Origin: an uncultured Chloroflexia bacterium
GTDB lineage: Bacteria > Chloroflexota > Dehalococcoidia > DSTF01 > WHTK01
Length of the DNA stretch: 64,000 nucleotides
Reading direction: 5' to 3'
Assembly (NCBI GenBank): GCA_963732945.1
Contig: CAVTBL010000017.1
Span: forward strand, 324,224 to 388,223
This document shows, in pieces, positions 2,188 to 39,719 of the stretch. The notes under the pieces were generated by a model. The model was not told the DNA's origin. It was given only the letters and a program-made list of their open reading frames with translations, and searched no databases. Every line of letters begins with the position of its first letter. The stretch's first letter is position 1. Both the position numbers and the translations under genes were made by a program.

Positions 2188-3171
2188 ATGCGAGTCTTCG
2201 TAGCAGGTGCGAGCGGTGCCATCGGGAGGCAACTGGTACCTCAGCTCATAGAAAAAGGACATCAGGTGATCGGCACCTACAGAAACCCTGGTAAGGCTGA
2301 CGCCCTCAGAGCGCTGGGAGCAGAGCCCGTCCAGCTCGATCTGCTTGACCGCGACGCGGTGTCCAAAACCGTCCTCAAGGCCGCGCCGGATGCGATCGTC
2401 CACCAGGCCACCTCGCTATCGAACTTGAGCGACTTCAAGCACTTCGACCGCAGCTTCGCGCTGACCAATCGACTTCGGACCGAGGGCACTGACGCGCTCC
2501 TGACGGCTGCACATGACGCGGGCGTCCGACGCTTCGTTGCGCAGAGCTTCGCCAGCCCTCGCTACATACGCGAAGGCGGGCCGGTCAAAACCGAGGACGA
2601 CCCGGTTGACCCCCATCCTGTACCGGCAATGCGAGAGAGTTATGCGGCGATGCGGCATCTGGATAAGGTGGTTCCCGAGGCCGGTGGCATCATCCTCCGC
2701 TACGGTGGCTTCTACGGCGACGCCACCGATGCGTTGCCCGGTCCCGTTCGCAAACGGCAGTTTCCTATCGTCGGCAATGGGGAGGGCGTCACGTCTTTCA
2801 TTCATCTGTACGACGCGGCGGCGGCGACGGTAATGGCCCTCGATTATGACGGCCCCGGCATCTACAACGTCGTCGATGACGAGCCCGCCCCGGTGCGCGA
2901 GTGGTTGCCATTTCTCGCGAGCCTTCTTGGCGCAAAACCGCCGTGGCACGTCCCGGCCTGGCTGGCCAAGCTCTTTGTCGGCGACGCCGGCGTCATGATG
3001 GCCACAACATCACGCGGCGCCTCGAACGCCAAAGCGAAACAGCAACTCGGCTGGACTCCGCGCTACGCGACCTGGCGCCAGGGTTTCGCCGCCGCCTATA
3101 GCACGTCAAGCGTTGCTGACGCACGGCGCAGCCCAGGCTCTGCCACTCGAACGACTCACTCCTCAACCTGA
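2188..3171 (+). CDS. NAD-dependent epimerase/dehydratase family protein
   Basis: MRVFVAGASGAIGRQLV.. is a Rossmann GxxGxxG motif. ATG at 2188 follows AAAGGAG. The ORF-track start at 1909 would add an implausible 93-aa leader overlapping the sigma gene. Confidence 0.85.
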   Translation: MRVFVAGASGAIGRQLVPQLIEKGHQVIGTYRNPGKADALRALGAEPVQLDLLDRDAVSKTVLKAAPDAIVHQATSLSNLSDFKHFDRSFALTNRLRTEGTDALLTAAHDAGVRRFVAQSFASPRYIREGGPVKTEDDPVDPHPVPAMRESYAAMRHLDKVVPEAGGIILRYGGFYGDATDALPGPVRKRQFPIVGNGEGVTSFIHLYDAAAATVMALDYDGPGIYNVVDDEPAPVREWLPFLASLLGAKPPWHVPAWLAKLFVGDAGVMMATTSRGASNAKAKQQLGWTPRYATWRQGFAAAYSTSSVADARRSPGSATRTTHSST

Positions 3172-3205
3172 GCAGCTTCCGAGGACTCCAAGCAGGAGAT
3201 AGACT

Positions 3206-3499
3206 ATGTCAAGTAAGCAGCACCTCTCCCAACCGACCATTCTGCCGGCCGTGACCAATACAGCCACGCTGGACTATCGAACTGAGACCGACAAGATCGA
3301 CGAGACGCGCCAGTTCGTTCAACGGGCACTGCTCGACTTTGGTCTTCTGGACGCGTTCGAGCATCGGTCGGTCGGGAAGAAGGAGGGATGCCTGCGATGG
3401 ATAGCAGCCGCTCCAAATCGCAGCGAGGAAGAAGATCGAGTCTCCCGTCTACTTGATGCTCTCGCGAGCGGCGGCCCTTTAGGGCCGCAACGACGTTAA
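3206..3499 (+). CDS. YdeI/OmpD-associated-like small protein
   Basis: C-terminal ..CLRWIAAAPNRSEEEDRVSRLLDALASG resembles the YdeI-family WI..AK..eTR..Ri motif. Recognised from memory only. Confidence 0.45.
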   Translation: MSSKQHLSQPTILPAVTNTATLDYRTETDKIDETRQFVQRALLDFGLLDAFEHRSVGKKEGCLRWIAAAPNRSEEEDRVSRLLDALASGGPLGPQRR

Positions 3500-3789: not shown

Positions 3790-4191
3790 TCAGTCCGTAA
3801 GCTCATGCCACTTCGGAGTGTAAGCAACCTCCCACTGAAACCCGTCGGGGTCGGCGAAGTAGCCGATGCGGCCGACGCTACCGGTGTCAGCCGGCAAGAT
3901 GATGCTGCCGCCGAGAGCTACAGCCTGACCGAGAATCGCGTCTACTTCCTCTGCCGTCGTCACGTTGTGCGACAGGCAAAAGCCGGGATAGCCGTTGCCT
4001 TCTGGCGAGGTTCCGGAAAGTGCCGCCAGCCGGTCGCGCGGGAATAGAGCCAGCCAGGACCACTCGAGGGCGAAGAAGACGGCTCTTTCGCTGCTCTCGG
4101 GACGGGCTTCGAAGCCCATGCCTTCGTAGAAAGCTCTTGACCGCGCGAGGTCTGAGACTCCGAGATTACAGACGCTGATGCGTGGGCGCAT
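3790..4191 (-). CDS. VOC family (glyoxalase/bleomycin-resistance fold) protein
   Basis: MRPRISVCNLGVSDLARSRAFYEGMGFE...GYFADPDGFQWEV are typical VOC motifs. Confidence 0.85.
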   Translation of the reverse strand: MRPRISVCNLGVSDLARSRAFYEGMGFEARPESSERAVFFALEWSWLALFPRDRLAALSGTSPEGNGYPGFCLSHNVTTAEEVDAILGQAVALGGSIILPADTGSVGRIGYFADPDGFQWEVAYTPKWHELTD

Positions 4192-4226
4192 GCCATGCCT
4201 TTCTAGAACTGGAGGATGCCGGTCGC

Positions 4227-5195
4227 CTAGCGCGATCCGCGCAAGCGCGGGTCAAGGATGTCACGCAGTGTGTCGCCAAGAAAGTTCGCTCCCATAACCG
4301 TCAGAGTCAAGGCAATGCCCGGGCCGAGCATGACCCACGGTGCCGTCAGGAAGTAGTCGCGGTTGCGCCCAGAGAGGTCAGTGCCCCACGAAGCCGTGCC
4401 AATTGACACTCCGTAGCCTAGAAACGAGATCCCGGCCTCGAGCAAGATGATGAAGCCGATGAGTGAGCTGAACGTAACGATTACGTATGGGAATACGTTG
4501 GGCAGGATGTGCCTGAACATGATGCGCGTCGAGCCGGCGCCGATCGTCTGGGCGGCTTCGATGTAGGGCAGGTTGCGCTCTTTCAAGACGGCAGCGCGGA
4601 TCACGCGCATGACGCCAAACACCAGGCCGATGCCGATTGCAAGTGAAAGCGTGCGCAGGTCCCAGATGAGCACCAGGATGTTCCCCTCGCGCGCTCCGGA
4701 TGGCCTGCCAAGCGCCGCGACGATCATCAGAACCAGGATAAGTCCCGGGAAAGACGCCAACACCTCCATTGCGCGCTGGACGATCAGGTCCATCCAGCCA
4801 CCGAAGTAGGCAGATACGATGCCCAGCACGGTGCCTACGCCCACGCCCAACACTGTCGACGACAGAGCGACCGCGATGGAGACCTGCGCACCGTAGATCG
4901 TCCTGGAGAGCACGTCTTGCCCCAGCGTGTTGGTACCAAAGATGAAGGTGCTGTTCGGCGACAAGAGGCGCCCACCAACGAAATCGTTGGGATGGTAAGG
5001 CGCGAGGAGTGGCGCCAGCAATGCGAGCAGAATCGCAGCGAAAATCACGAGGGCGCCGAAGACTCCTAGAGGGCGCCGCCGCCAGGGAGCCCAGGCGGAA
5101 GCCAGGGATTGGCGTAGCGACGCGACCTCGAGGGGCGCGAATGAGAGAGCGCTGTCGTCGAGTACTGAGCCGCCTGAACCCATCTCCCTTGCCAT
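4227..5195 (-). CDS. ABC transporter permease (DppC/OppC-like)
   Basis: Multi-TM protein with a binding-protein-dependent transport signature (..IEAAQTIGAGSTRIMFRHILPN..). Confidence 0.9.
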   Translation of the reverse strand: MAREMGSGGSVLDDSALSFAPLEVASLRQSLASAWAPWRRRPLGVFGALVIFAAILLALLAPLLAPYHPNDFVGGRLLSPNSTFIFGTNTLGQDVLSRTIYGAQVSIAVALSSTVLGVGVGTVLGIVSAYFGGWMDLIVQRAMEVLASFPGLILVLMIVAALGRPSGAREGNILVLIWDLRTLSLAIGIGLVFGVMRVIRAAVLKERNLPYIEAAQTIGAGSTRIMFRHILPNVFPYVIVTFSSLIGFIILLEAGISFLGYGVSIGTASWGTDLSGRNRDYFLTAPWVMLGPGIALTLTVMGANFLGDTLRDILDPRLRGSR

Positions 5196-5207
5196 CTGTG
5201 TACCTGC

Positions 5208-6152
5208 CTAAATGACGCGAATGCGGGGGTCAATCAGCGCGTAAGTGAGATCGATGATCAGGTTGATGCTCATCAGCACCACCGCCGTGTACATCGAAAC
5301 GAGCATCACGACCGGGATATCCTTGTTTTGAATCGCGTCGAGAGTCCAGGCACCAAGGCCCGGGAGTCCCATCACCTTCTCGAGAATGACCGAACCGCTA
5401 AGAAGGCCCCCGAGCTGCAGACCCGCTAGCGTCAGCACGGGAGGCAGAGCATTGCGGAAGGCGTGTCGCATAGTAATGACCCGCTCGTTGAGGCCCTTGG
5501 AGCGTGCCGTGCGGATGTAATCCTGGCGCAGAACCTCAAGGAATCCGGAACGTGTGAAGCGCATCAGCACGGCAGAGCTGCTGAGAGCCAGAAGCAGTGT
5601 CGGCGGCACGAAGAGCCGCAGGTTGTCGATTGGGCTGTCGAACGGGTTCGTCGCGCCGAATGGCGGTGCATACCCGAAATAGCGCGCGGGTACGATCAGC
5701 AGCAGCGTGAGGATGAGGAAATTCGGTACCGCAAGGCCGAAGATTGCAAAGACGCGCACCAACATGTCGGTGAGTGAGTCCTGCTTCAGCGCGGAAATGA
5801 TGCCTGCCGATATGCCAAACATGAGCGTGAAGGCAAAGCTCAGAACTACTATCTCCAACGTGATTGGGAGGCGTGAAAAGAACGTCGAAGTGACACTGGT
5901 ATGACTCCAGAGCGACTTGCCAAAATCGCCCCGGAGGAAGCCACCGGCCCAGCGGGTGTACTGCTCGAACCAGGAGCCGTTGAGGCCGTGAACCTCTCGG
6001 AAGCGTTCCAGGTTCTCGGGGCTCGCCTCCTGGCCGAGGATGTTGGCAGCAGCATCGCCGGGCACCAGGCGCAACAACGTGAATACAAAGACGGACACCA
6101 GGAACAGGTTCAGCACGAAGCCGGCCATGCGCCTGGTAAGGTACGAACTCAC
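5208..6152 (-). CDS. ABC transporter permease (DppB/OppB-like)
   Basis: MSSYLTRRMAGFVLNLF.. and ..DYIRTARSKGLNERVITMRHAFRNALPPV.. form the EAA-loop motif. Confidence 0.9.
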   Translation of the reverse strand: MSSYLTRRMAGFVLNLFLVSVFVFTLLRLVPGDAAANILGQEASPENLERFREVHGLNGSWFEQYTRWAGGFLRGDFGKSLWSHTSVTSTFFSRLPITLEIVVLSFAFTLMFGISAGIISALKQDSLTDMLVRVFAIFGLAVPNFLILTLLLIVPARYFGYAPPFGATNPFDSPIDNLRLFVPPTLLLALSSSAVLMRFTRSGFLEVLRQDYIRTARSKGLNERVITMRHAFRNALPPVLTLAGLQLGGLLSGSVILEKVMGLPGLGAWTLDAIQNKDIPVVMLVSMYTAVVLMSINLIIDLTYALIDPRIRVI

Positions 6153-6281
6153 GTTCGAGTCTCCATTACGCCGTGCTCATCTCCTGATTCGATTCGTCCT
6201 GCTACCGGGCTGAAAGAGACGGAGGGACGAACAAGGATCCGCCGGTAAAAGCGAGTCGGAGTTCGTCCCTGGTCCGCTTTA

Positions 6282-8014
6282 CTAGGCCAGCCAGGCGTCG
6301 GCGCGGTGCATCGTCGTATTGGACGACTCGATTTCCATGTTGCGCACCTTGCTGTTGACCAGCACCTGGTTATACGGCGTGACGATGTTGTAGTACGGCG
6401 TGTAGCGCTTCAGCAGTTCCATCTGGATATCGCGCACGAGCTTCGCGTTCTCTTCGAAGTTGACCGTCTGCTCGGCCTTTTCGATCATCGCGTCGATTTC
6501 GGGTAGGCCGAGCGCTGTACCGCCGAACGCCAGGTTGCTGACGCTGTGGTTCTGTCGCAGCGGCGCCTGAGGGCTGTCGTATTGGGGATGGCTGCCGTGG
6601 AACAGGTCGTACTCACCGCGGTTGCTGCGAGGCAAGAACTCACCGGCATTCACAACTTCGATACGCAGCTTGAGGCCGACCTTGGCCCACTGTTGCTTGA
6701 GGATCTCGGCACCGGACTGATTCTGCGTGCCGATGATCTCGCAGACGATTTCCCGGTTGTAATCCCAGCCGACGGCATCGAGTAACTTCTTGGCCTCGGA
6801 CGGGTCCTGCTTGAAAAACTGATCCGTGTCCTTGGGATCGAGGAGGTACTCCTTCGCCTGCCCCATGGCAAGGACGCCGGAAGTGGCTACAGCGGCGCCG
6901 CTGTAGCGCAGATCGATCATCTGCTGCTTGTCCGTGAGCCGGTAGGCAGCCTGGCGCATGCGGATGTCGTTGGGATCGGACCAGGGTCCGCGGCCCTTCT
7001 GCATGCCGAAGTTCCAGGTGTAAGGCGCCAGGCCGATCCATTCGACCGGAGTAGCCAGGCTTCCCATGGCCGTGGCAGTTTCCTTGAAGGCACCGGCAGC
7101 CGGCGTGTAGTAGTGCACCTGCTCGCTACGGAACGCCGCCTGGCGCGGAGCGTCATCCGTCAGATTGAACACGTCCGTGGCGTCGTGGAAAGGCAGCGTG
7201 CCGGGCTTGCCGCGGCCGTGGTACTTATCGAACTGGTGTAGTGGTAGCGGCTGCTGATCACCCAGTCGGCGAGCTGGAACGGGCCGCTCCCAACCTGCCG
7301 GGCAGTCGCCAGGTTGTCGAACGTCTCCGGCGGGATGATTGCCTGGGGACCGGGATGGCCCAGCAGGCGTGAGGTGAACAGATAGGCAGTCGGAGCCTTC
7401 AGATGGTAGATGACGGTGTTGTCGTCGGGCGCCTCGGCCTTGTCGAGGATGGTGTTCTGGAATGAGTTCTCGGCGCCGGTCAGCGTCTTCACGTGATTCT
7501 GGACGGCGACTACGTCGGCCGCCTTTACGGCACGGCCGTTAACCGGGGCGATGTTGTGATAGACCATGCCCGGGCGTAGCTTGAAGCGAATCGTCAGGTC
7601 GTCGGGCTGCTCCAGCGCTTCTGCGGCCTCGAGGACGTAGGGAGCGTTGGCGTTGCTGCGACTCGAGATCATGTGGTCGTAGACGTACTGACCGCCGTAG
7701 CCGGCGTATTCGAGGGCGTTCGTCAAGATGTCGAGGTTAGGTGAGTCCGAATAGATGTAGCCAATGGTGCCTTTTGTGGCGCCGGACGGCAGTCCTTTGG
7801 CGAGATATCCGTCCGTGATTCCCTTGATGTTGGCTCCCGAGCTACCGCCGGAGCCGCCCGAGCCCGAGCTGCCGCCAGTGCTGCTGTTGCTCTTGGAACC
7901 ACCTCCGCCGCACGCGGCCAGGAACGCCGCCGCTCCCGTGGCAGCCCCCGTTGCGGCGATGGCGCGTCGCCTGGACAGCCTTCTGTTGAGGATGCTTTGC
8001 CAGTAGTCCTGCAT
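6282..8014 (-). pseudogene. family-5 ABC substrate-binding lipoprotein, frame-disrupted
   Basis: The N-terminal piece (7160..8014) has a Tat-like RRRAIAATGAA, an AACGGG lipobox and a Ser/Gly linker. The C-terminal piece (6282..7172) is in another frame. The join ..SSRYHYT / FDKYHGRGKPGTLPF.. implies a 1-nt indel near 7233-7240. Confidence 0.8.
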
Positions 8015-34506: not shown

Positions 34507-34659
34507 ATGCGACGGACTGACGACGTGCTGGTCTGCGTGGACGCGCGCGGCAAACGGCTGGTGGCCTTCAGGCACCAGGACGTGAGGGCGTTCGCGCGGC
34601 AGTCGAACTCGGATTACTGCGTATGGGAGTTCCCCTGGCAGCTCCCAAACGCCGCCTGA
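34507..34659 (+). CDS. small hypothetical protein (50 aa)
   Basis: ATG at 34507 lies 6 nt after GAAGGAG. Third-position GC is strong. Convergent with the RTX-like gene. The ORF-track version starts at 34450. Confidence 0.35.
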   Translation: MRRTDDVLVCVDARGKRLVAFRHQDVRAFARQSNSDYCVWEFPWQLPNAA

Positions 34660-34673
34660 CGCAGCTCCTACCC

Positions 34674-35467
34674 TCAGACCACGCTCTCGCTACCTACTTC
34701 GACGCGTCCGCCGTTGACGTGGCGGTCGGCGACGCCTGCGCCGTCGGTGAGGTCCGCGGCGTAGAGGTCGCGGACGATCGGGACCGGCGTACCGTCGGCG
34801 ATGGGCGCGGCGTCGAAGTCGCGGTCGGCGATCGGCGTACGGGTAGGCGTGGCGGTATCGGTGTGGCCGTCGCGCGTGACGATCGCGGGCGCGCTCGACT
34901 GCTGCGACGCGGTGTTGGATGCGCGTCGTCGTCCTCGTGCGAGCCGTCCTCGCAGTTCGTGGGCGTGCCGCCGCCGTTACCCGCGTCGCAGTAGTCGGTG
35001 CCGGGGCCGCCGTCGATGACGTCGGGGCCGTTGCCGCCGTAGATGCTGTCGTCACCGGCGCCGCCGTAGATGTAATCGCGGCCGTTGCCGCCGTACAGCC
35101 TGTCGTTGCCGTCGCCGCCGAGGATCACGTCGGTCGAGTTGCCGCCGTAAATCGTGTCGTTGCCGTCGCCGCCGACGATGCAGTCGCCCTGGTTGCCGCC
35201 CGTAATCGTGTCGTCGCCGCCGAGGCCGAAGATCAGGTCGTGGCCGTTGCCGCCGTGCAGGTCGTCGTTGCCCGGCGTGCCGTAGATCACGTGGTCGAAG
35301 TGCGACAGGCCGTGGTCGATGCACTCCTGCGGCACGGGCGGCGGGATGTTAGCCGCCTCGATGGTGAACACCTGCACCGTGCCGCCGTTGACGACCAGCG
35401 ACGCCGCCGAAGCGCCGATGACACTCAACATGATCATGCCCACGACGAACCAGATGAGCTTCCGCAT
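34674..35467 (-). pseudogene. RTX-like (hemolysin-type Ca-binding repeat) protein with N-terminal signal/anchor; frame break before the C-terminal domain
   Basis: [34 protein letters not shown].. is followed by about 10 GGxGxD nonapeptide repeats. After ..[10 protein letters not shown] the ORF-track frame becomes Pro/Arg/Ser/Thr-rich. The -1 frame has near-uniform GC3 and reads [82 protein letters not shown] with stop at 34674-34676. The shift lies near 34915-34925. Confidence 0.65.
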
Positions 35468-35476
35468 GGGCCGTTG

Positions 35477-35833
35477 CTACTTCGACGCGTCCGGCTTGTA
35501 GGCGAACTCGTAGGTCACGCCGCCGTCCGGCACGAACAGCAGCTCGCGTCCTCCTGCGCCTGGCTGAAGATGATCTTGCCGTCGCGCTGCGCCATCTTGG
35601 CCAGGTCCTGCAGGCTCGAGAGGCGGATACGCTGCAGCGCCGTAGTCTTCGACTGCCTCGACGGGCACGAGCTTGACGCCGATGCGTGTCAGCAGCTGCA
35701 CCGCTGCGCCGCGCCCGAGGCCGAGGAACACGACGGCGCCGAAGACCGCCCCGGCGCCAACCGCGAGCACGGCAAGCAGGCCCGCTACGAGACGCGCCCG
35801 CGACACGCTCAGCGTCGTGACGAGCAGGCTCAC
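35477..35833 (-). pseudogene. membrane protein X3 (TM + small C-terminal domain), two compensating frame breaks
   Basis: GTG overlaps the X2 stop (GTGA). VSLLVTTLSVSRARLVAGLLAVLAVGAGAVFGAVVFLGL is the TM segment. The middle segment codes well only in another frame (LQRIRLSSLQDLAKMAQRDGKIIFSQAQED). It then returns to ..ELLFVPDGGVTYEFAYKPDASK*. Shifts lie near 35631-35648 and 35540-35560. Confidence 0.5.
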
Positions 35834-36681
35834 GTGGTTGGTCGAGTGCTGTGCTCGACGACGGTCTTCGGCTGGCTGGCCTGCAGGTCCGTCGCGGGCG
35901 TGATCGTGGTCTTGTCGTAGGTGAAGGTGAGGGGCGAGCTGTAGGTCTCGTTGACCTGCTTGCCGTCGACGGTGCCCGTGACGCTGACGTGCGGCACCAC
36001 CGTTATGTCGTATTTGCCCGCCTTGTAGTTCGTCTCCTTCTCGATCTGGTCGATCGTCGTCTGGATCGGCCTCAGGTCGATCACCGCGTTGCCGTTGGCC
36101 GTCGAGCCGTTGAACGCCGTCGGCGCCATCAGCGTCGACGTGTCGCTCCAGCCCGGCGTGCCGCTGGGCTGCACCAGGAGGTCGGCGCTGATCTGGCCCT
36201 GCAGGTCGGTCGCGGTTGCGCCGGTCAGCCCGTAGCCGAAGCCGACCTCGATGCTCTGTGACCAGGGCCGTGTAGATCGGCGTGGCCGCCGGCGCGCTGG
36301 CCGCGGGTCGCGGCGCCGGCGGGGCTAGCGCCGGGGGTGGTAGTTCCAGCGTTCGCCGGCGCCGCGTCTGCGGCCGTCACCGGGCCGATCTTGCCCAACT
36401 GGTAGACCAGCGACGGCGTGACGTTGAACGTGTAGCGTAGCTCAGCGACTGCGTGTACGCGGTCTGCGTCACGCTGGTGTGTGCGAGGGCGAGGTCGTCA
36501 GGGCGGGGAGCGCCAGGAGGCCGCGGCCAGCGCCAGCAGCGCCGCGACGCCGAGGCCGGCGAACGACCACGCCGGCGGCCTGCATCTGCAGCCGTGACGT
36601 TGCCGCGTAGCGCCGTCGCGTGCGCCTGCGCTGCCGTCTTGCGCGGCGGAACCGTCCGCGCTCGCCTACTTGAGTTGCCAT
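35830..36681 (-). pseudogene. membrane protein X2 (Arg-rich N-terminus, TM, beta-rich ectodomain), multiply frame-disrupted
   Basis: ATG at 36681 lies 7 nt after GGGGAGG. The best-coding frames give MATQVGERGRFRRARRQ.. / WSFAGLGVAALLALAAASW (TM) / DDLALAHTSVTQTAYTQSLSY / RYTFNVTPSLVYQLGKIGPV.. / ..IEVGFGYGLTGATATDLQGQISADLLVQPSGTPGWSDTS..KYDITVVPHVSVTGTVDGKQVNETYSSPLTFTYDKTTITPATDL..*. At least 4 frame switches (near 36570-36582, 36500-36510, 36430-36442 and 36250-36290). Confidence 0.5.
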
Positions 36682-36683
36682 AC

Positions 36684-37185
36684 TCAGACCTCCCCGCCGT
36701 CGTCGCTTTTCTTTTTGAGTGTCTGTGTCTCCGGCGATGCCGATGCTGGCGAGGCCGCCGAACAGCGCCGCCATGTAGGCCGGCTGGCGCAGCTTGAGCA
36801 CGAGGCTGCCCTTGCCGGACATGTGCAGCCACGCCTTGCCGATCACGTCGGCGTCCTTCGGGTGCCAGCCGTCGACCCACGAGTTGTTGACGCCCTGCGT
36901 GTCGTAGCCGTTGACGCCGTCGCCGCCGATGATGCGGTGGATGACGTTGTTGCCGGCCCCGTTTTCGCCCGCCGGGATCGTGTAGGCGACGATGTCGCCG
37001 ATCTTGTAGTGCGCCTGCCGGTGCGTGACCACGAGGTCGCCGGTGTAGTACTTCGGCTCCATGCTGTGACCGGACACGATGATGTAGCCGGTCGGGCCGC
37101 CGACGAACGTGGGTCGCAGCAAGACGAACCACGAGGCGAAGACGACGAGCGTCAGCAGAGGTAGCAGAAATTTGACCGGCTTCAT
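36684..37185 (-). CDS. signal peptidase I, S26B (SipW/Sec11 archaeal-eukaryotic type)
   Basis: N-terminal TM, VSGHSMEP (nucleophile Ser), GDIV, VIHRI (general-base His), TQGVNNSWVD (the TKGDNN..D box), and a C-terminal TM (AALFGGLASIGIAG). The ORF-track tail to 36469 is Arg-rich read-through. A 1-nt shift in the A5/A4 runs near 36700-36716 gives ..KKKSDDGGEV* with TGA at 36684-36686, 2 nt before the X2 ATG. Confidence 0.8.
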
Positions 37186-37252
37186 TCCGTTGCCTTACTG
37201 AGCGTGGCTGGCCCGCACGAAAGTGGGCCTGAATCACCTCGCATGCGTTAGT

Positions 37253-37287
37253 CTGGAGTGGGGCCGGCGAAGCCGGCCCCACTCCAG
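37253..37287 (-). promoter_or_regulatory. intercistronic GC-rich stem-loop between X1 and the signal peptidase gene
   Basis: CTGGAGTGGGGCCGGC (37253-37268) pairs perfectly with GCCGGCCCCACTCCAG (37272-37287), a 15-16 bp stem. It starts 8 nt after the inferred X1 stop. No U-tract follows it on the coding strand. Confidence 0.7.
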
Positions 37288-37294
37288 CGTCTGA

Positions 37295-37726
37295 CTAGGG
37301 GTAGGTGTCGTAGACGAAGACTTGGATCGAACCTATGTGCGTGCGGATCGAGCGTTGGGTCGATCGTAGCTGATGCGGACTCGCCCATGCAGTACCTGCA
37401 ACCAGCGTGCCTCCGGTGAAGGTCGGCGGGAATGTCCGAAGCTGCCCGTCCAGATGTTGTGCCGCCAGCGTCCTTGACGATGACGTCCATCTCGCCGCCT
37501 GCGCAGGTCGATGTCAAGGCCGTCCACGAGTGATCGCCTGAGATCTGGAATTCGCCAGTTGTGCTGTAGTGCACTGTGACGCCGTCCGTATCGCACTGGA
37601 CGTTGCTCAGCGTGCCTGCCTGGACGGCGCCGCCAGTCCGACAGTCAGAGTGGCAGCGGCGCCGTAGGCGACACCGGCAACAGCCAGGGCGGCCACGATG
37701 CCGATCAAGAACTTGAATTTGAACAC
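37295..37726 (-). pseudogene. small secreted protein X1 (candidate SipW substrate/fibre subunit), frame-disrupted
   Basis: AAGGAGA-N7-GTG (37726). (M)FKFKFLIGIVAALAVAGVAYGAAATLTV is the signal peptide, then a frame switch near 37636-37645 to ..TGGAVQAGTLSNVQCDTDGVTVHYSTTGEFQISGDHSWTALTSTCAGGEMDVIVKDAGG.. The best 3' frame ends ..IGSIQVFVYDTYP* at 37295-37297. A second switch lies somewhere in 37330-37440 and the exact path is unresolved. Confidence 0.45.
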
Positions 37727-38508
37727 TTAGTGGTCTCCTTGCTCGGACCCGCCCGCGAGCGCGGACAGGCCTACGTATCCGTACGTTGTCGGTAGCTATG
37801 CGTGTTCAAGGGGTAGTGGCATCACCTCCCGTTGGGCAAACGGGAGGAGTAAAAGACGCAACTTCTTTCATATATCAAGGCCAGGCGCCGCGAATCGCAG
37901 AGCCTGGCCCTGATACGATGAAAGAGCAGCGGAGTGCGCGTAACTCCCGTTGCCCCGGCGTCCTCGTGGTTGCCGCCACGAGGCGCCTCTCTTCTATTCA
38001 GACAACAGCCCGCGCGGTTTCGAGGCCGCGCTCGGCTGTTCGCCCGCGTTTGTGGATCGTCACGCGGACGCTGCTATCCGGGTCGAGCGATTGCTAGATC
38101 AGGGAGACGAGGCGTTCGGTACGCGCGCGCAACTAGGCACGCAGCACCGGGTCCGTAGACTCGCCCGCCCAACCACGCAGTCAGACCGGCACCCGATAGC
38201 AAAGGTCAGGCATCACCTGAACGTGACGATGACGGCCCGACTTGGGCCTGCGTACCCTCCTGCCGCTGCTTCCTTGCGGCCCCGGCGTTACGCCGGTGGA
38301 GGCGGGGTGACGTTCATACCGAACGCCGCCCAACTATCGCGGACAGGACAGATACGTGTCAACGTTTTCTTGTCAGAATCTGAACATAACGCGCGACAAT
38401 GTGTAACATTTAACAACGACAACTCATGAATTAGGATGCCTTAGCGCTCTAACGAGCGCAGCGCGGCGAATTGTGCCGCCGAGGATCTGCTGCTGTGCGC
38501 AGGCCGGA

Positions 38509-39719
38509 CTAGTTCCAGAGGCGCTTCGAGGCGATGGCGGCGCCTTCGGACATCGCCTTGAGCTTGGCCCAGACGATCTCCTCGTGGCCCACGCGCGAGC
38601 CGATGCCGCAGTCCGTGCCCGTCTGCACGTTCTCGCGCCCGACGATGTTCGCGTAGTTGACGATGCGCTCCGCGACCACCTCCGGGTGCTCGACGAGGTC
38701 GGTGGCGTGCGATAGGACGCCCGGCATCAGCATCTTGCCCGCCGGCAGCTTCACCGTCTCCCAGACGTGGTACTCGTGCTCGTGGCGCACGTTCGCCGCC
38801 TCGATCGAGTACTGCATCGCGTTGATCTTGACCATGATGTCGGCGATGTACTTGAGCTCGATGTCGTAGACGTGGGGGCGGTGGCCGGAGCCCCAGCAGG
38901 TGTGGAACCTGACCAGCTCCTCGGGCAGGCCCTCGAGCGCGTGGTTCAGCACCTCGACCGAGAAGTTGAGGTACTTGCGCAGGTCCTCGACCTCCCAGTC
39001 GGGATAGAACGACCACGTGGTGCAGAACTCGGGCTCGTCGACCTGGACGATGAGGCCGGCGTCGGTGATCGCTTTGTACTCCTCACGGCAGGCCGCGGCG
39101 ACCGCCATCATGTACTCCTCTTCGGAGCCGTAGAACTCGTTGCGCACGCCGGCGCCGAGGCTCAACGGCCCCAGCGCGGCGATGTAGCCCTCGACGTCCT
39201 TGCCGGCGATCGCGGCCTTGAGGTCGGCGATGTCGAGCTTCACGGCGTCCTGGCCGGTGTAGGTGATCGGGCCGGAGCAGACGCGGGTCTCGCGATTGTT
39301 GATCGTGCGCACCTGGCCCGGCGTCATGAAGCCGGGCCGAATCGGGCCGCCGGAGCCGGAGAGCCAGAGGCCGGAGGCGTAGAAGCCCGGGAACTCACGC
39401 CGGTCGCGCTCGGCGGTGCTGGCGCGCTTCGGCGTGCGGTTGAGGGGTCGAAGGGGACGGTCGAGTAGCCGGTGACGCGGCCCTGCATGTAGCCGCCGTA
39501 GGAGCCGGCCTTGGCGTACTCGCCGTCGTTGACGATGTCGACGCCGCAGTCGATCTGGCGGTCGACGATCCACTGCACGGCCTTCGGCAGGCGCTGCAGG
39601 TACTCGGCGCGGTTGGCGCCCGAGGTGTCCTTGCCGCCGTCGATCAGCTCGTCGAGCTCGGGCGGGCGCGGCAGGTTGCCGGCGTGCGATACCAGGATGC
39701 GGTCGGTGCTGCGTCTCAT
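38509..39719 (-). pseudogene. MetE-like (UROD-fold) protein, paralog 2, frame-disrupted
   Basis: MRRSTDRILVSHAGNLPRPPEL..DGEYAKAGSYGGYMQGRVTGYSTVPFDP is in the frame of ORF 39324..40145. ..LNRTPKRAS..VCSGPITYTGQD..VRFHTCWGSGH..IEAANVRHEHEY..GTDCGI.. is in ORF 38509..39573. The break is at the G4 run 39444-39447. Confidence 0.8.

Follow-up and report, generated by a model that had tools for sequence, protein, structure and literature searches.

The repeated frame changes in a secreted-fiber gene cluster on the minus strand of the window (the whole stretch of 64,000 nt that was analyzed, in whose numbering all positions are given) are very probably single-base indel errors in the consensus of a metagenome-assembled genome (MAG) that was built from long reads or insufficiently polished. 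Consensus error is favored because essential housekeeping genes throughout the genome show similar frame breaks. The genes themselves, encoding X1, a SipW-type signal peptidase with a fused DUF5305, and the secreted RTX-repeat protein X4, would be intact in the organism. The locus has the following elements:

37727..38510, no strand assigned: tract of ~780 nt upstream of X1, without a convincing ORF, GC lower (0.53-0.69), noncoding according to the HMM
37295..37726, minus strand: X1, small secreted protein of ~143 codons and candidate fiber subunit, with ~9 single-base frame changes
37253..37287, minus strand: perfect GC-rich hairpin separating X1 from the peptidase gene, read directly from the sequence
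35477..37185, minus strand: one gene of ~569 codons comprising the previously proposed peptidase, X2, and X3, delimited by Pfam, relatives, and ortholog alignment
36260..36729, minus strand: densest stretch of the fusion gene (tail, TM1, linker), with 14 gap columns versus the ortholog
34694..35467, minus strand: X4, uninterrupted ORF for a 257-aa secreted protein with Ca-binding nonapeptide repeats of the RTX type and a tail rich in Pro and Thr

Frame changes and restored genes

Frame changes were traced by a GC3 profile, three-frame reading, a codon HMM, and an alignment, with frameshifts allowed, to the orthologous locus on a Dehalococcoidia MAG contig, which is intact (81% nucleotide identity). 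The first three approaches agreed that the minus strand changes frame repeatedly, and the alignment revealed at least 18 shifts within 37640-35547, placed against the 75%-identical ortholog (distant homologues misplace several of them). A previous sequence-only reading had proposed about ten disruptions in 3 kb; the frame jumps were real, but their number was underestimated. Furthermore, the comparison with the locus of a relative, which that reading had suggested, was run and the ortholog frames were found to be intact. The density of ~1 shift per 100 nt corresponds to ~90 times the genome baseline. The shifts were unevenly spread: the peptidase domain (456 nt) and the N-terminal part of DUF5305 (410 nt) contained none. 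The indels at the locus comprised 15 extra and 15 missing bases, unlike those of the whole genome, where 73% of the breaks look like one extra base.

In X1, one shift was located near 37640 and eight were located between 37541 and 37334. The site at 37636-37645 had been recognized correctly, and the earlier reading had given at least two jumps in X1. Three one-base insertions fell inside 32 nt of X1, and the short pieces QAIT and VDGLDI matched the ortholog exactly, each in its own frame. Three-frame reading placed the post-signal GG..Q motif in a different frame from the signal peptide. Alignment to a partial ortholog on contig L022 yielded 8 frame changes, 66/86 identity, and no stops, and the homologues in genome G007 are intact. 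Searches in Pfam, NCBIfam, and PDB sequences gave no family match for X1 or for these homologues. Judged by its sequence, X1 is most likely a normal small secreted protein and is to be treated as intact.

The peptidase, X2, and X3, which had been described as separate genes, form a single fusion instead: relatives harbor open frames of 559-600 aa for the same gene, and an intact 569-aa ortholog (P0001) shows 75% identity across 100% of the read-through. Therefore, one of the shifts, near 35838, coincides with the X2/X3 "boundary." Frameshift-aware alignment of the gene to its ortholog gave 450/562 identity and no stops, and a protein search retrieved 24 more peptidase-DUF5305 fusion proteins. 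The encoded protein starts with a signal peptidase I domain of the archaeal/SipW type, which is free of shifts (37185-~36730). A C-terminal TM helix with an Arg-rich loop follows, and then DUF5305, which has a pair of TM helices together with an extracellular domain and a cytoplasmic tail. In Pfam, the peptidase ORF of the window matched Peptidase_S24 (26.2 bits; cutoff, 23.3) and Peptidase_S26 (23.1 bits; cutoff, 22.9), while a separate 114-aa ORF of the window matched DUF5305 (PF17231) with 32.8 bits (cutoff, 29). The ortholog P0001 matched TIGR02228 with 58.3 bits (cutoff, 51.85), and its PF17231 match spans profile positions 11-217 of 217.

Nine robust shifts were detected in the fusion gene, near 36576, 36521, 36480, 36436, 36305, 36262, 35838, 35644, and 35547, and 2 to 5 further, uncertain ones lie in the Arg-rich loop (36726-36605). 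Through the densest stretch, the frame order is f1-f2-f1-f0-f2-f0-f1. In line with this, the alignment bore out the jumps proposed at 36570-36582, 36430-36442, and 36250-36290 in X2 and at 35631-35648 and 35540-35560 in X3. The jump postulated at the peptidase 3' end (36700-36716) amounts at most to a compensated pair, as the frame is the same on either side and the KRRRRGG.SM tail is kept in relatives.

X4 contains an N-terminal signal peptide and matches Pfam HemolysinCabind (2e-24). The best NCBIfam RTX model scored 65.9 bits against a cutoff of 1000 and covered the repeats only, and X4 is thus not assigned to the RTX toxins or T1SS substrates. Its 423-aa ortholog contains an FN3-like domain that is absent from X4, as is a large part of the linker; the two proteins align with 192/253 identity and no frame change. 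A jump near 34920 had been claimed, and the codon HMM does change frame at 34920, but the ORF remains open, and its final ~26 residues correspond to the ortholog C terminus in the original frame. A frame excursion inside 34925-34770 is possible. In the tract upstream of X1, all six frames contain stops; Rfam gave no match there at an E value of ≤0.1, and nothing was found across 33.5-39 kb.

Origin of the frame changes

To what extent the locus differs from the rest of the MAG was seen in a genome-wide analysis with the codon-usage HMM, which, counted conservatively, detected at least 347 frame breaks over 3.17 Mb, or 0.11/kb. The genes for ProRS and CarB, each found once in the assembly, are split across frames, and so are those for BirA and malate synthase; in all four, the Pfam domains continue across the junctions. 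In the window, four other ordinary genes are split (two SBP_bac_5 genes, a MetE-like gene, and a receiver-TrxR fusion). Dense islands were also found elsewhere, in ordinary metabolic genes: a CoxL-like gene is in 15 pieces in 2.1 kb, an FGGY kinase gene in 7 pieces in 1.5 kb, and the CarB gene in 5 pieces. The ProRS gene lies at 350.0-351.5 kb of contig C3, the CarB gene at 74.8-78.2 kb of C16, and the CoxL-like island at 21.6-23.8 kb of C5. The indels cluster in such islands, with ~1 per 100-200 nt as against ~1 per 9 kb in the background, and 21 windows contained at least 4 events, versus ~1 expected (uniform Poisson, 0.11/kb). The earlier statement that the disruptions are far denser here than elsewhere in the window holds for these 64,000 nt; in the genome, at least three islands score higher by the same automated measure. 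A relaxed tally of all same-strand frame switches was dropped, since tight operons (ribosomal proteins and ATP synthase) score high without error.

The MAG consists of 17 contigs, the longest up to 853 kb, with a marker completeness of 83% and a full 16S gene inside a 261-kb contig. Overlaps at contig ends are 96 to 99% identical, revealing coexisting strains, and one gene is broken in contig C8 and whole in the overlapping copy in C14. No second copy of the locus was found in the MAG. A metagenome scan for a same-species match yielded a 40% relative only, the closest sequence to the locus in the protein search had 75% identity, and a look-up of the exact X4 product returned no record.

We suggest that the assembly is long-read based and that its consensus is especially poor in several local islands, the fiber locus being one. 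Such islands may form where coverage or polishing failed or where coexisting strains blurred the consensus. Small-indel frameshifts are a known fault of long-read metagenome assemblies (10.1101/2021.08.23.457338; PMC9262707). As in the described cases, genes including essential ones are split by small indels, marker completeness is reduced despite contiguity, and protein-guided alignment recovers full-length frames. Unlike in those cases, the indels here lie off homopolymers and are strongly clustered in islands.

The sequence-only reading had offered poor consensus, real decay, and phase variation without ranking them. The first is the one that stood, and decay is disfavored. According to the decay explanation, a fiber operon that the population can do without has gathered genuine frameshift mutations, perhaps in some of the strains only. 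This is unlikely, although several observations would fit it: the indel density far above the genome baseline, the FN3-like domain lost from X4 relative to orthologs, and the fast evolution of the locus among relatives (best same-genus peptidase identity, 51%). Moreover, the indel-dense parts are somewhat more diverged, with an identity to the ortholog 4 to 8 points lower than that of the clean parts, a difference for which weaker constraint, substitution errors, and real decay are all conceivable causes.

In bacteria, base substitutions outnumber indels several-fold, and decay should therefore have produced several stops and a blurred codon signal. Despite more than 18 indels, no in-frame stop was present in ~650 restored codons, which showed 77 to 80% identity to the ortholog. 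Codon bias was intact, with a GC3 of 0.86-1.00 in each restored segment. Where indels are dense, the bases that differ from the ortholog were not evenly spread but fell mostly on codon position 3 (share, 0.51-0.55) and least on position 2. By these sequence characteristics, the restored frames resemble genes under purifying selection. The three +1 events inside 32 nt and the similar islands in the CarB, FGGY kinase, and CoxL-like genes also argue against decay. Also unlikely is a variant in which the indels are real and one strain of a mixed Dehalococcoidia population is losing a Tafi/TasA-like fiber operon through decay that is very recent and dominated by indels, the other breaks in the genome being errors.

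A mixture was also considered, in which most breaks are consensus errors and a few true, frame-neutral compensated indels lie in the Arg-rich loop and the X4 Pro/Thr tail. Indeed, the window's own frame is open across 36726-36580, where gap groups total multiples of three, and the X4 ORF is open throughout. However, both stretches are of low complexity and poorly aligned, and the gaps may be alignment noise. We regard this mixture as improbable; the verdict on the ORF-breaking shifts is unaffected by it.

Slippage-driven phase variation would mean that a surface system is turned on and off by frame changes at repeat tracts. The locus does encode surface or secreted products and contains A5 and G5 runs, but a phase-variable locus is recognized by a homopolymer or short tandem repeat at the site, typically of at least 7 units. 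The longest homopolymer is 5 nt, no simple sequence repeat of at least 4 units exists in 34600-37800, and the mean run length is 1.6 at the shift sites versus 1.9 in the background. Furthermore, ~20 separate sites over three genes are unlike known contingency loci. Since repeat tracts are missing and the shifts lie off homopolymers, phase variation is refuted, with next to no probability left for it. Programmed ribosomal frameshifting was rejected as well (~20 sites, both signs, no common motif).

Relation to known peptidase-fiber systems

Read as consensus-damaged but intact genes, X1, the fusion gene, and X4 most likely represent a bacterial counterpart of the archaeal loci for Tafi and related fibers, which combine a peptidase, DUF5305, and subunits. 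In Tafi, the signal peptidase TafD and TafG (DUF5305) are accompanied by pilin subunits (PMC11821415; PMC12337348), and the locus is similar in that an archaeal/SipW-kind type I peptidase and a DUF5305 membrane protein are encoded beside small secreted subunit-like proteins. Of the Tafi-like characteristics, both the archaeal-type signal peptidase I domain and a DUF5305 encoded with, or fused to, the peptidase are present. In contrast to Tafi, peptidase and DUF5305 are a single polypeptide here, and the cargo carries Sec-like instead of Tat signal peptides. Moreover, X1, the candidate for a pilin or fiber subunit that would assemble by donor-strand exchange, is without a sequence match to a known pilin family, the operon includes an RTX-repeat protein, and the fiber is predicted from the genes. 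Bacterial peptidases with a DUF5305 domain are on record, one of them from the Chloroflexota genus Tepidiforma (PMC11821415). The combination of a SipW-DUF5305 fusion and secreted cargo in Chloroflexota is in part already described and of modest interest.

The layout can also be compared to that of Bacillus. The Bacillus SipW model of NCBIfam gave only 15.7 bits on P0001 (cutoff, 190). In Bacillus subtilis, the tapA-sipW-tasA operon encodes a dedicated SipW-type peptidase with its secreted fiber/matrix substrates. The candidate substrates in our locus similarly share a motif right after the signal peptide (..V.GG..Q, by eye), but they show no sequence match to TasA/camelysin, and the NCBIfam models for SipW-cognate signal peptides had no match listed for X4 or the X1-like proteins of G007 at an E value of ≤0.01. 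To our knowledge, the B. subtilis operon is without a DUF5305 partner.

These results change how the locus and the whole genome are read. Roughly 1 gene in 10 of the MAG carries a break, and calls of pseudogenes, "split genes," or "noncoding tracts" need a frameshift-aware check. The frames of this locus, in which the "unrecognizable" X2, X3, and peptidase tail become one ordinary fusion protein, are no basis for claims of decay, phase variation, or novel short ORFs.

Gene structure and frame changes at the fibre-like locus

All locus genes are encoded on the minus strand. The window has 65% GC, and third-position GC (GC3) of its genes is normally near 0.95-1.0. The sequence-only reading had described about ten frame jumps here, and repeated jumping was borne out by three approaches. 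Between 37700 and 34700, the phase of highest GC switched repeatedly in the GC3 profile, and in a three-frame reading the protein-like text jumped from frame to frame. Furthermore, an HMM of codon usage, for which 443 long ORFs from this genome served as the training set, split the locus into short pieces in differing frames and classified 36438-36731 and 37158-38510 as non-coding.

Pfam analysis identified the 238-aa ORF as signal peptidase S24/S26, the 114-aa ORF as the first half of DUF5305 (profile positions 1-105 of 217), and the 257-aa ORF (X4) as RTX nonapeptide repeats. At the peptidase match, relatives from the same genus and family show uninterrupted frames of 559-600 aa. A protein search with the 568-residue read-through of the window pieces matched 25 proteins of 322-906 aa (mostly 477-620 aa). 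The top match, P0001 from a Dehalococcoidia MAG (569 aa; 75% identity; 100% query coverage), is annotated as signal peptidase I, scored 58.3 bits with NCBIfam's model of archaeal-type signal peptidases (cut-off 51.85) and covers DUF5305 positions 11-217 of 217. Because relatives have long open frames and P0001 spans the full read-through, the peptidase, X2 and X3, previously listed as separate genes, are a single gene (37185 to 35477, minus strand). Peptidase-DUF5305 fusions in bacteria are already on record, and for archaeal Tafi fibre loci the literature pairs DUF5305 (TafG) with the TafD peptidase (PMC11821415, PMC12337348). The appropriate annotation of the locus is X1 as an intact gene, a single peptidase-DUF5305 fusion gene, and X4.

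On L022 (4141 nt), the contig encoding P0001, the order of the three genes is unchanged: an X1 ortholog represented by its 3' part, then the fusion gene, then an X4 ortholog of 423 aa. L022 shows 81% nucleotide identity to window positions 37563-34969. Frameshift-aware protein-to-DNA alignment to these orthologs placed 8 frame changes within the final 88 X1 codons (identity 66/86) and 11 within the fusion gene (identity 450/562), with no stops in either, and no frame change in X4 (identity 192/253). Of the gaps in the nucleotide alignment, 30 were one base long (15 extra and 15 missing), four were of 3 nt, and one of 5 nt was intergenic. An additional shift near 37640 places the X1 signal peptide and mature part in different frames; the motif it splits is continuous in intact X1-like proteins of the relative G007. 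In total, 18 shifts were robust.

Frame shifts at the locus (window positions)
X1, minus strand, robust: near 37640, 37541, 37528, 37509, 37454, 37440, 37430, 37357, 37337
Fusion gene, minus strand, robust: near 36576, 36521, 36480, 36436, 36305, 36262, 35838, 35644, 35547
36726-36605, uncertain: 2-5 more, in a poorly conserved Arg-rich loop of the fusion gene

The jump proposed at the peptidase 3' end is reduced to a compensated pair at most, since the in-frame KRRRRGG.SM tail is conserved. The one near 34920 in X4 is seen in codon statistics only; the X4 frame stays open and, at its C-terminus, agrees with the ortholog in the original frame.

Features of X4, its flanks and the N-termini

X4 (34694-35467) has 257 aa, versus 423 aa (L022:2091-3362) and 397 aa (G007) in its orthologs. 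In the latter, the RTX repeats are followed by an FN3-like domain and a Pro/Thr/Ala/Ser linker of much greater length, a part missing from the window X4. The open frame gives the X4 tail an unusual richness in Arg, and codon statistics there are better in another frame. The 17-nt 3' ends of the fusion gene (35477-35493) and X4 (34694-34710; both minus strand), including the stop, are identical, so that both genes terminate ..DASK* and the copies form a direct repeat flanking the entire X4 gene. The string has no other copy in the window and was matched in 0/100 shuffles; the ortholog's two genes have unlike ends (..DSTE* and ..DASQ*). Recombination or gene conversion could have produced the repeat, as could chance at a motif common to both genes.

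Upstream of X1, the ~780-nt tract 37727-38510 is interrupted by stop codons in each of the six frames, is lower in GC at its two ends and matched nothing in Rfam; either a genuine regulatory/intergenic region or a gene corrupted beyond recognition could account for it. X1, X4 and relatives' homologues share an N-terminus in which A-x-A..(L/I)xV(x)GG(T/A)xQ comes after a hydrophobic signal. By eye it resembles the post-signal motif of SipW substrates; NCBIfam signal-peptide models gave no match.

Sites of the shared N-terminus
37726-37640: X1
35467-35380: X4
L014 (stretch of G007) 4181-6709: homologues
L015 (stretch of the relative G019) 2611-3390: homologues

Frame breaks across the genome

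Counting as conservative breaks only same-strand frame changes without a stop within 30 nt (codon-usage HMM), we detected at least 347 in the source MAG (0.11 per kb); in 73%, the downstream frame was displaced as by one extra base. Read-throughs yielded full-length Pfam matches spanning the junctions, as in prolyl-tRNA synthetase (ProRS), carbamoyl-phosphate synthase large chain (CarB), biotin ligase and malate synthase; ProRS and CarB are single copy in the assembly. Elsewhere in the window, a single frame change splits each of four ordinary genes, at 7236, 40362, 39444 and 31481, and their Pfam domains continue across; two encode SBP_bac_5 binding proteins, one is MetE-like and one is a receiver-thioredoxin-reductase fusion. 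Breaks were strongly clustered, with 21 3-kb windows holding at least 4 events versus about one predicted (Poisson, 0.11/kb). The break density of the locus is unmatched within the window but not genome-wide, the first three islands below being the densest.

Break islands on other contigs
C5:21649-23793: CoxL-like molybdoenzyme, 15 pieces
C17:257188-258219: secreted beta-propeller-like protein, 8 pieces
C17:165145-166650: FGGY kinase, 7 pieces
C16:74872-78135: carB, 5 pieces

The assembly looks long-read based: its contigs reach 853 kb, one 261-kb contig contains a full-length 16S gene, and marker completeness is only 83%. Small-indel frameshifts are a documented weakness of long-read metagenome assemblies (10.1101/2021.08.23.457338; PMC9262707). 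Contig ends overlap at 96-99% identity (95.7-99.2%, mostly substitutions); these overlaps were left unmerged and come from strains co-existing in the sample. In one of them, a small gene occupies two frames on C8 (307-696) and one on C14 (7804-8196), owing to one base.

Contig-end overlaps
C8:1-7729 and C14:411-8507
C4:851202-853351 and C7:50291-52523
C9:19678-20865 and C12:1177-2361
C3:603857-604787 and C10:238886-239815

Origin of the disruptions

Of the three explanations offered earlier, slippage-prone phase variation is excluded, because homopolymers at the locus do not exceed 5 nt, no SSR reaches 4 units, and mean run length is shorter at shift sites (1.6) than in the background (1.9). 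Poor consensus is the supported explanation: breaks occur genome-wide and the coding signal is intact. GC3 was 0.86-1.00 in every restored segment, and ~650 restored codons held no in-frame stop. In the indel-dense parts, codon position 3 accounted for 0.51-0.55 of all differences from the ortholog and position 2 was the rarest, as in the clean parts. Moreover, X1 has three one-base insertions inside 32 nt, and each short piece is identical to the ortholog in its own frame. These data and the assembly features speak for error.

In bacterial mutation, substitutions are several-fold commoner than indels. Some 20 true indels should therefore be accompanied by numerous substitutions, a loss of sharpness in the codon signal and several nonsense codons, but the locus showed none of these. 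We consider real decay improbable. What counts against error is a local break density about 90 times the genome baseline and its unevenness (zero indels in the 456-nt peptidase domain and the 410-nt DUF5305 N-part). Also against error, divergence from the ortholog is 4-8 points higher in dense than in clean parts, the indels lie away from homopolymers and lack insertion bias, and X4 is without a domain that orthologs carry. The collections searched held no same-species sequence. A strain-blurred or low-coverage consensus may be why the less conserved stretches were hit hardest.

We conclude that the locus is most likely a consensus-error island of an error-prone MAG. Such an island is nothing unusual as a finding, and it is useful as a caution for every other reading of this genome.
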